A stretch of 64,000 nt of DNA from Escherichia coli (GCF_048403405.1 NZ_CP183129.1), one strand, 5' to 3'; shown: positions 46,657 to 48,575, counted from the stretch's first letter. Translations and numbers: made by a program. The notes: generated by a model from the letters alone, not told the origin.

Positions 46657-47018
46657 TGCTTATTAATCGCAATAATATATTGGCTGTCTATTCATCGTGT
46701 TGATAAGATATATGTTATATGAATGTTTATTCAATGTAACGGGTGTTTTTAATGTCACTACAAGGGATTATTTGCTTACTATTAATTTCACTGCGTTCTT
46801 AAGCACGCCTTTTGTATTATAAATCCAGTCATCCTGCCCGTAGATTATCATCCTGTTTTCCCGCTTCGTTTAAATTTATTTATCAATCAATTTGACTTAA
46901 GAGGGCGGCGTGCTACATTAATAAACAGTAATATGTTTATGTAATATTAAGTCAACTATGCAACCACTACATGGTAATTGTCTAATTGCGTACGCAAGAC
47001 ATAGGTAATGACTCCAAC

Positions 47019-47522
47019 TTACTGATAGTGTTTTATGTTCAGATAATGCCCGATGACCTTGTCATGCAGCTCCACCGATTTTGAGAACGACAGTGACTTC
47101 CGTCCCAGCCTTGCCAGATGTTGTCTCAGATTCAGGTTATGCCGCTCAATTCGCTGAGTGTAACGCTTGCTGATTACGTGCAGCTTTCCCTTCAGGCGGG
47201 ATTCATACAGCGGCCAGCCATCCGTCATCCATACCACGACCTCAAAGGCCGACAGCAGGCTTAGAAGACGCTCCAGTGTGGCCAGAGTGCGTTCACCGAA
47301 TACGTGCGCAACAACCGTCTTCCGGAGCCTGTCATACGCGTAAAACAGCCAGCGCTGGCGCGATTTAGCCCCGACGTATCCCCACTGTTCGTCCATTTCC
47401 GCGCAGACGATGACGTCACTGCCCGGCTGTATGCGCGAGGTTACCGACTGCGGCCTGAGTTTTTTAAATGGCGGAAAATCGTGTTGAGGCCAACGCCCAT
47501 AATGCGGGCGGTTGCCCGGCAT
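47019..47522 (-). CDS. insB: IS1 InsB (C-terminal part of InsAB' transposase, produced by -1 frameshift)
   Basis: 167-aa ORF ...[43 protein letters not shown]... Confidence 0.93.
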
Positions 47523-47716
47523 CCAACGCCATTCATGGCCATATCAATGATTTTCTGGTGCGTACCGGGTTGAGAAGCGGTGTAAGTGAACTGCAGTTGC
47601 CATGTTTTACGGCAGTGAGAGCAGAGATAGCGCTGATGTCCGGCGGTGCTTTTGCCGTTACGCACCACCCCGTCAGTAGCTGAACAGGAGGGACAGCTGA
47701 TAGAAACAGAAGCCAC
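47441..47716 (-). CDS. insA: IS1 InsA (transposition repressor / N-terminal part of InsAB' transposase)
   Basis: 91-aa [46 protein letters not shown]... Confidence 0.95.
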
Positions 47717-48575
47717 TGGAGCACCTCAAAAACACCATCATACACTAAATCAGTAAGTTGGCAGCATCACCCAAGACATAAATATATTCTCACCATGGTT
47801 AATGGTGAATATCGCTATTTTAATGGCGGTGATCTGGTTTTTGCGGATGCAAGCCAAATTCAAGTGGATAAGTGTGTTGAGAATTTCGTATTAGTTTCAA
47901 GAGACACGCTTTCATTATTTCTCCCGATGCTCAAGGAGGAGGCATTAAAACTTCATGCACATAAAAAAGTTCCTGCATTACTCGTTCATCACTGTACCAG
48001 AGATATTCCTGTTTTTCAGGAAGTTGCGCAACTATCGCAGAATAAGAATCTTCGCTATGCAGAAATGCTACGTAAAAGGGCATTAATCTTTGCGTTGTTA
48101 TCTGTTTTTCTTGAGGATATGCAGTTTATACCGTTACTACTGAACGTGTTGCAACCGAATATGCGAACACGAGTTTGTACGGTCATCAATAATAATATCG
48201 CCCATGAGTGGACATTAGCCCGAATCGCCAGCGAGCTGTTGATGAGTCCAAGCCTGTTAAAGAAAAAATTGCGCGAAGAAGGTACGTCATATTCACAGTT
48301 GCTTACTGAGTGTAGGATGCAGCGTGCTTTACAACTTATTGTTATATATGGTGTTTCAATTAAGCGAGTTGCAGTATCCTGTGGATATCACAGCGTGTCG
48401 TATTTTATTTACGTTTTTCGAAATTATTATGGGATGACGCCCACAGAGTATCAGGAGCGATCGGCGCAGGGATTGCCGAACCGTGACCCGGCGGCAAGTA
48501 TTGTTGCACAAGGGAATTTTTACGGCACTGACCGTTCTGCGGAAGGAATAAGATTATAGAGTTTTACTCAGACAT

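Follow-up and report, generated by a model that had tools for sequence, protein, structure and literature searches.

The question raised by this locus of Escherichia coli is whether the gene of the AraC-family activator GadX has truly been interrupted by an insertion sequence, how old such an interruption would be, and what is left of the regulator. The window, that is, the whole stretch of 64,000 nucleotides that was analysed (GCF_048403405.1, NZ_CP183129.1), contains a complete IS1 element within the 5′ end of gadX. According to the reading put forward here, to which a probability of roughly 0.92 is assigned as a whole, this is a true transposition event, very recent and later than the split from the closest sequenced relatives, by which GadX function would have been abolished. 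The allele is an ordinary recent knockout of a non-essential regulator and belongs to already-known biology; IS1 and GadX are both fully known, and knowledge of either is unchanged by the finding. Mildly notable is only that the sister regulator gene, gadW, has been inactivated independently in the same strain.

Anatomy of the IS1 Element

The element comprises 768 bp (47004–47771, minus strand), with insA and insB lying antisense to gadX. It is bounded by terminal inverted repeats of 23 nt each, located by inverted-repeat detection, which are imperfect (83% complementary; GGTAATGACTCC... and GGTGATGCTGCC...); the insB-distal repeat IRR (47004–47026) adjoins the 5′ fragment of gadX, and the insA-proximal repeat IRL (47749–47771) adjoins the 3′ fragment. 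Both coding regions are open, namely insA, specifying 91 amino acids from a GTG start (47441–47716, minus strand; ORF list), and the insB′ reading frame with the DDE domain (47019–47522, minus strand; ORF list and Pfam). The A6C slippery site TTTAAAAAAC (47459–47468, minus strand), at which a programmed −1 frameshift joins insA to insB′, is intact. When this shift is introduced, the recomputed translation is an uninterrupted InsAB′ transposase of 232 amino acids, which scores 246.5 bits against the NCBIfam IS1 family transposase model NF033558 (cut-off 100) and contains the Pfam domains Zn_ribbon_InsA, HTH_Tnp_IS1, and DDE_Tnp_IS1, each at full length. A promoter-like site was found by the consensus scan in the IRL region on the minus strand (hexamers from 47764 to 47737), pointing inward to insA.

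This is the sole IS1 copy of the window. Many IS1 copies on E. coli chromosomes and plasmids are 100% identical to it over the 768 bp, while copies labelled as IS1A or IS1B family in RefSeq are about 95–97% identical to this isoform. In its length, its 23-bp imperfect inverted repeats, the A6C frameshift, and the 9-bp target duplication, the element matches the standard IS1 family without any structural difference; the insertion site alone is particular to the strain. Judged from the intact coding capacity and the complete identity to widespread copies, the element is functional-looking and would be competent for transposition.

Target Duplication, Empty Site, and Age of the Insertion

The 9-mer CAAGACATA, corresponding to gadX nucleotides 38–46, is read directly from the sequence on the left (46995–47003) as well as on the right side (47772–47780) of IS1; that two fixed positions share the identical 9-mer by chance has a probability of about 4e-6. 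Deletion of 47004–47780 in silico yields an 825-bp ORF encoding 274 amino acids (MQPLHGNCLIAYARHKYILTMVNGEY...), which agrees in 825 of 825 bases with the annotated intact gadX (WP_001182736.1) of the strains 4621 and MS 69-1. In these two strains, gadX is uninterrupted and CAAGACATA is present once, representing the empty site. Against the GadX equivalog model NF007432.1, the reconstituted protein scores 595.6 bits (cut-off 500) over positions 1–274 of 274, a match that holds only once the element has been removed in silico, the gene as found being split.

Upstream of the insertion, 25 kb are 100.0% identical in five complete genomes (4621, TUM1226, OX030728, MS 69-1, and TUM14771). When the window is compared with strain 4621 over 63.2 kb, the differences are a single SNP (11409), two indels at homopolymers of bcsA, IS1 and the accompanying target duplication, the loss of 2 bp from gadW, and nothing else. 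When the 5,426 complete E. coli genomes were probed with a 140-bp junction sequence, none contained the gadX-IS1 junction in contiguous form; each of the 12 places “covering” the probe consists of two separated pieces. The exact junction 39-mer had no match in GTDB species-representative genomes or JGI metagenome contigs. Because the closest genomes carry an intact gadX and differ by a single SNP in about 63 kb, the insertion is taken to be real and recent.

The first-pass annotation of this DNA had described a 768-bp IS1 in minus orientation with intact insA and insB and both inverted repeats, a perfect 9-bp duplication, and the recovery of the gadX frame upon removal of the element with one duplication copy. 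Direct reading and recomputation bear out these statements, as does the alignment to reference gadX and IS1 that had been suggested as a check. The relatively recent transposition that had been proposed is now backed by the empty site, the near-identity to strain 4621, the unshared junction, and the IS1 sequence being identical to other copies.

Remnants of gadX

The break point in gadX lies after codon 15 and the first base of codon 16. The 5′ fragment (46958–47008, plus strand), whose flank is identical to the intact gadX of 4621 and MS 69-1, comprises codons 1–15 and a single further base, from which the frame runs on into IS1, giving MQPLHGNCLIAYARHR and then TAA upon translation. It now encodes a 16-amino acid peptide, terminated by a TAA that arises within the IS1 end, two codons beyond the junction. 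Ahead of the gadX ATG, a sigma-70-like match on the plus strand (TTGACT-16-TACATT with TG; 46892–46919) is presumed to be the native gadX promoter, a consensus match that is weak evidence by itself, with 7 sites found by the scan versus 5.8 expected by chance. The 3′ fragment (47780–48559, plus strand), identical to intact gadX, contains codons 16–274 and the stop codon and is cut off from promoter and start codon; 259 codons are thereby located downstream of IS1 (47780–48556). An ORF of 254 amino acids begins within this fragment at the internal ATG of Met21 (47795–48559, plus strand; ORF list).

These details modify the earlier description, in which gadX was said to be split after codon 15, with the N-terminal 15 codons keeping the native promoter and the remaining 254 codons losing promoter and start codon. 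Codon 15 stands, to be supplemented by one base of codon 16; the promoter-like site is still attached, but the peptide now has 16 residues; promoter and native start are lost for 259 codons instead of 254, and the internal Met21 ATG stays in place.

IS1 is classically polar in either orientation. Because of this polarity and because neither an outward promoter nor a ribosome-binding site is predicted before the sole downstream ATG, that of Met21, the gadX::IS1 allele is most likely null for GadX. In strain EDL933, deletion of gadX brought acid resistance down to 1.41% of the parent (PMC3887101).

gadW and Other Neighbouring Genes

The gene gadW starts 369 bp downstream of gadX, and its condition had been overlooked in the first-pass annotation. 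Alignment with gadW of 4621 and Nord58, together with the ORF list, identifies it as a pseudogene (48928–49654, plus strand) that is split into ORFs of 94 and 155 amino acids. The lesion is a 2-bp deletion (CA) between 49180 and 49181, which converts TCACCCCCC into TCCCCCC. It is found in none of the 5,426 complete genomes, the best match of a 70-mer across the deletion being 97.2%. The exact 94-amino acid product is encoded, however, in two independent public read assemblies, one of which (L009) carries the same nucleotide change in a background of about 1% divergence with gadX intact, while the other (L010) has undergone a different event, C6 to C4, yielding the same 94-amino acid protein. 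Because the product recurs in this way, a simple sequencing error in the window assembly is an improbable source of the deletion. Judged from their reading frames, GadX and GadW, both AraC-type regulators of the system, are broken in the strain, and the gadW hit is independent of gadX::IS1. The annotation is to be corrected to two pseudogenes, gadX and gadW, and a “gadX” call for the 254-amino acid ORF would mislead.

Further frameshifts were seen in gadW of public assemblies, namely C6 to C5 together with A8 to A7 (L017) and a 1-bp deletion of T (L020). The frameshifts of L010, L017, and L020 map to window positions 49047, 49181–49186, and 49426–49433, and in gadW the homopolymer tracts seem prone to repeated frameshifting.

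The small RNA GadY, antisense to the 3′ end of gadX (48571–48684, minus strand), is intact; it matches Rfam RF00122 with 150 bits (gathering score 45) over model positions 1–114 of 114, and its region shows zero differences to strain 4621. Likewise, strain 4621 has identical copies of gadA, mdtEF, gadE, and hdeABD, and the gene order gadA, gadX, GadY (antisense), gadW, mdtFE, gadE corresponds to that of annotated relatives. Right after yhiD, the haem-uptake genes chu/shu are found (chuU, chuY, hutX, hutW, shuT, and others; 58341–63630), and the acid fitness island of this strain therefore belongs to the larger EDL933 type and not to that of K-12.

Some observations concern more distant parts of the window. 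The gene bcsA, encoding the catalytic subunit of cellulose synthase (17570–20187), has A5 at 17978 where MS 69-1 has A6, which leads to a stop at codon 143. Public assemblies contain the resulting 142-amino acid product in at least 40 blocks, so that the frameshift is either genuine and common or a homopolymer error that recurs. Strain 4621 (L007) has another bcsA frameshift, G4 versus G5, at the equivalent of window position 18546 and is annotated there as “frameshifted”; unless these are sequencing errors, bcsA would seem to have been broken independently in two very close strains. Self-matches and the annotation of 4621 furthermore point to three tandem Ldr-type toxin gene units, about 96–97% identical and about 484 bp apart (11544–12911), and to two RtT-like sRNA repeats following a tRNA-Pro gene (3310–3670).

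IS1 in gadX of Other Genomes

Using a 1.8-kb real segment as query, IS1 in the orientation of the window was found within about 1.4 kb of gadX in 45 genomes; with IS1 flipped in silico, the opposite orientation was found within the same distance in 61 genomes. About 2% of complete E. coli genomes thus have IS1 in or beside gadX, at many independent sites, so that finding gad genes in screens for virulence or fitness genes is not to be equated with a normally regulated system. From these, 20 representative loci were fetched and the insertion was mapped in each, the position being the start of the duplication or, where this is missing, the boundary between IS1 and gadX. The duplication or IS1 border is located at gadX nucleotide 12, 15, 17, 51, 95, 116, 147, 191, 242, 298, 332, 446, 447, 486, 487, 498, 638, or 655, while two of the 20 mapped loci have it upstream of gadX, at −200 and −121. 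Duplications of 8–9 bp are present in all mapped loci except one, and in most of them split gadX pseudogenes have been annotated by PGAP. The allele at nucleotide 95 stands for 34 genomes and that at nucleotide 638 for 11, as grouped by same span and identity, with one genome of each mapped.

The alleles include those of Nord58, 1448, MINF_7C, the ECONIH4 group, the 34-genome SX48/2016C-3878 clade, FDAARGOS_1297, and DFK.1. None of the mapped ones is at nucleotides 38–46, and the insertion site of the window is unique among the sampled genomes. Because the positions are all distinct and isoforms and orientations vary, at least 19 independent IS1 events would have occurred in the gadX coding sequence, that of the window and 18 others. 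Recurrence at the very same site had been suggested by genomes that could be aligned in one piece to the window or to its version with flipped IS1, and was dismissed upon mapping, which gave nucleotides 12–20, 15–23, and 51–59 instead of 38–46. The commonness of gadX::IS1 in public genomes had escaped the first-pass annotation and lowers the novelty of the allele. In the full-text literature searched, natural IS1 insertions in gadX were not described; the papers found deal instead with knockout phenotypes and with the loss of the Gad island during laboratory evolution.

In unrelated genomes, independent IS1 insertions of opposite orientation form two pairs with a distance of one base, at gadX nucleotides 446/447 (L028 and L030) and 486/487 (L025 and L001), which hints at preferred local IS1 target sites inside gadX. 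More complex arrangements were also encountered. In CX21 (L024) and four sister genomes, a truncated ccp abuts IS1, IS1 abuts gadX nucleotide 17, and gadA is gone; in the rearranged locus of fS25a (L034), a corA fragment lies on the far side of IS1, which is located 121 bp upstream of gadX.

It was considered whether gadX is an exceptional IS1 hotspot. With the same query design, the control locus yhjB, 6 kb away, gave 38 genomes and the gadE region 7 genomes, and two clades account for 45 of the 68 genomes with IS1 in the gadX coding sequence. IS1 is known to favour AT-rich DNA, and the GC content is 41% for gadX versus 51% for the window. The yhjB count being comparable and the two clades being dominant, the data demonstrate recurrence but do not amount to proof of a hotspot beyond the AT-rich preference.

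Alternative Explanations

An assembly artefact, in which IS1 would have been mis-joined into gadX via the repeated element and be absent in the cell, has to be considered for an element that is multicopy in E. coli, at a median of about 10–11 places per genome, all the more as repeats cause mis-assemblies and the junction 39-mer lacks an independent sighting in the GTDB and JGI collections. A mis-join is expected, however, to bring unrelated sequence to one side, whereas collinear gadX is found here on both sides with a 9-bp overlap exactly at the IS1 termini, and 17 other public genomes show the same architecture elsewhere in gadX; the artefact is highly improbable. Practically negligible is the probability that the insertion is old and that the relatives lost IS1 by precise excision. 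IS1 can be excised precisely, if rarely, but an empty site or a different insertion is present in all five of the closest genomes and in all other complete genomes, so that many independent precise excisions would be needed; moreover, the element is undecayed, with flanks that differ from 4621 by one SNP in 63 kb.

The assumption of a null allele competes with that of partial function, according to which the IS1 end or read-through would drive a truncated GadX (Met21–Leu274, 254 amino acids) that retains the AraC DNA-binding domain at its C-terminus and continues to regulate targets. The corresponding ORF is intact, and in some genomes with an upstream IS1 the 765-bp remainder is labelled “gadX” in the RefSeq annotation. 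IS1 ends reportedly supply −35-like hexamers that form hybrid promoters, as is said to have been described by Prentki and coworkers in 1986. A candidate of this kind was read by eye across the right junction, with TTGGCA in IRL, a 19-nt spacer, and TATATT at the junction, the start of which would fall near the Met21 ATG; it falls outside the consensus scan, which accepts a spacing of 16–18 nt. By that scan, no plus-strand promoter was found at the right end of IS1 or upstream of the 254-amino acid ORF, and the outward hybrid promoter was rejected as such, the by-eye candidate being retained within this low-probability alternative. Reading of the upstream sequence revealed no Shine-Dalgarno-like sequence before the Met21 ATG (ATATTCTCACC-ATG), the first 20 residues, which are part of the N-terminal domain, are missing, and the insertions at gadX nucleotides 242–655 in other genomes cannot be such gain-of-function alleles. 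Partial function is considered quite improbable against a null allele. A last alternative is compatible with a real, recent, inactivating insertion and concerns its timing only: gadX::IS1, and perhaps the gadW and bcsA frameshifts too, might have arisen during laboratory storage or passage and not in a host. Three loss-of-function lesions (bcsA, gadX, and gadW), all touching stationary-phase functions, are set against one SNP in 63 kb, and loss of the Gad regulon has been repeated in laboratory evolution (10.1101/063271; PMC13162491), with a gadX knockout being selected over its parent in an mgrB-deletion background (PMC8483737). On the other hand, IS1 in gadX is found in many natural host and environmental isolates, including the 34-genome clade, and the same gadW and bcsA frameshift products are found in independent public assemblies; such lesions therefore arise and persist outside the laboratory too, and a laboratory origin is judged unlikely.

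Proposed Course of Events

In the favoured scenario of a recent, real, and most likely null insertion, a functional-looking IS1 would have moved into gadX after the lineage had split from its closest sequenced relatives. A staggered target cut made by InsAB′, followed by gap repair, would have given rise to the direct 9-bp duplication of gadX nucleotides 38–46. Native promoter and start codon would then serve a 16-residue peptide only, with the other 259 codons placed behind 768 bp of antisense IS1. Consequently, the RpoS-GadX/GadW input to gadE and gadA/gadBC would be lost and glutamate-dependent acid resistance in stationary phase would be reduced, while GadE-dependent induction by other inputs, such as EvgAS-YdeO, may persist. 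The phenotype predicted for the strain is weak stationary-phase glutamate-dependent acid resistance despite intact structural genes, a prediction that depends also on evgAS, ydeO, rpoS, and gadBC, all of which are outside the window.

Possible Selection for Loss and Comparison with Laboratory Systems

Two independent hits, gadX::IS1 and the gadW deletion, are located within 2.2 kb, versus one SNP in 63 kb. Together with the 18 further IS1 positions in gadX and the gadW frameshifts at the C6 and A8 tracts of several unrelated assemblies, this raises the question whether natural E. coli populations are repeatedly selected to lose the GadX/GadW branch, IS1 being one of the main mutagens. For isobutanol stress, a benefit of down-regulating the regulon has been argued (PMC3071312), and the gadX knockout in the mgrB-deletion background was selected over its parent (PMC8483737); loss of GadX can therefore be advantageous, and a selective reading of the double hit is kept as a tentative, somewhat unlikely, and unproven one. 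If loss of gadX and gadW were selected, natural populations would be losing this regulation convergently, perhaps on account of the cost of regulon expression.

The closest known counterparts are the IS5-mediated deletions of the Gad island that appeared during laboratory evolution in benzoate-evolved and ageing-colony E. coli K-12 (10.1101/063271; PMC13162491). In those populations as in the strain of the window, a mobile element would remove GadX/GadW-dependent acid resistance. The laboratory events, however, are multi-gene deletions that occurred in K-12 under defined selection, whereas in the window a simple IS1 insertion and a separate 2-bp deletion have affected a wild-type, chu-bearing lineage in which all structural genes are kept.
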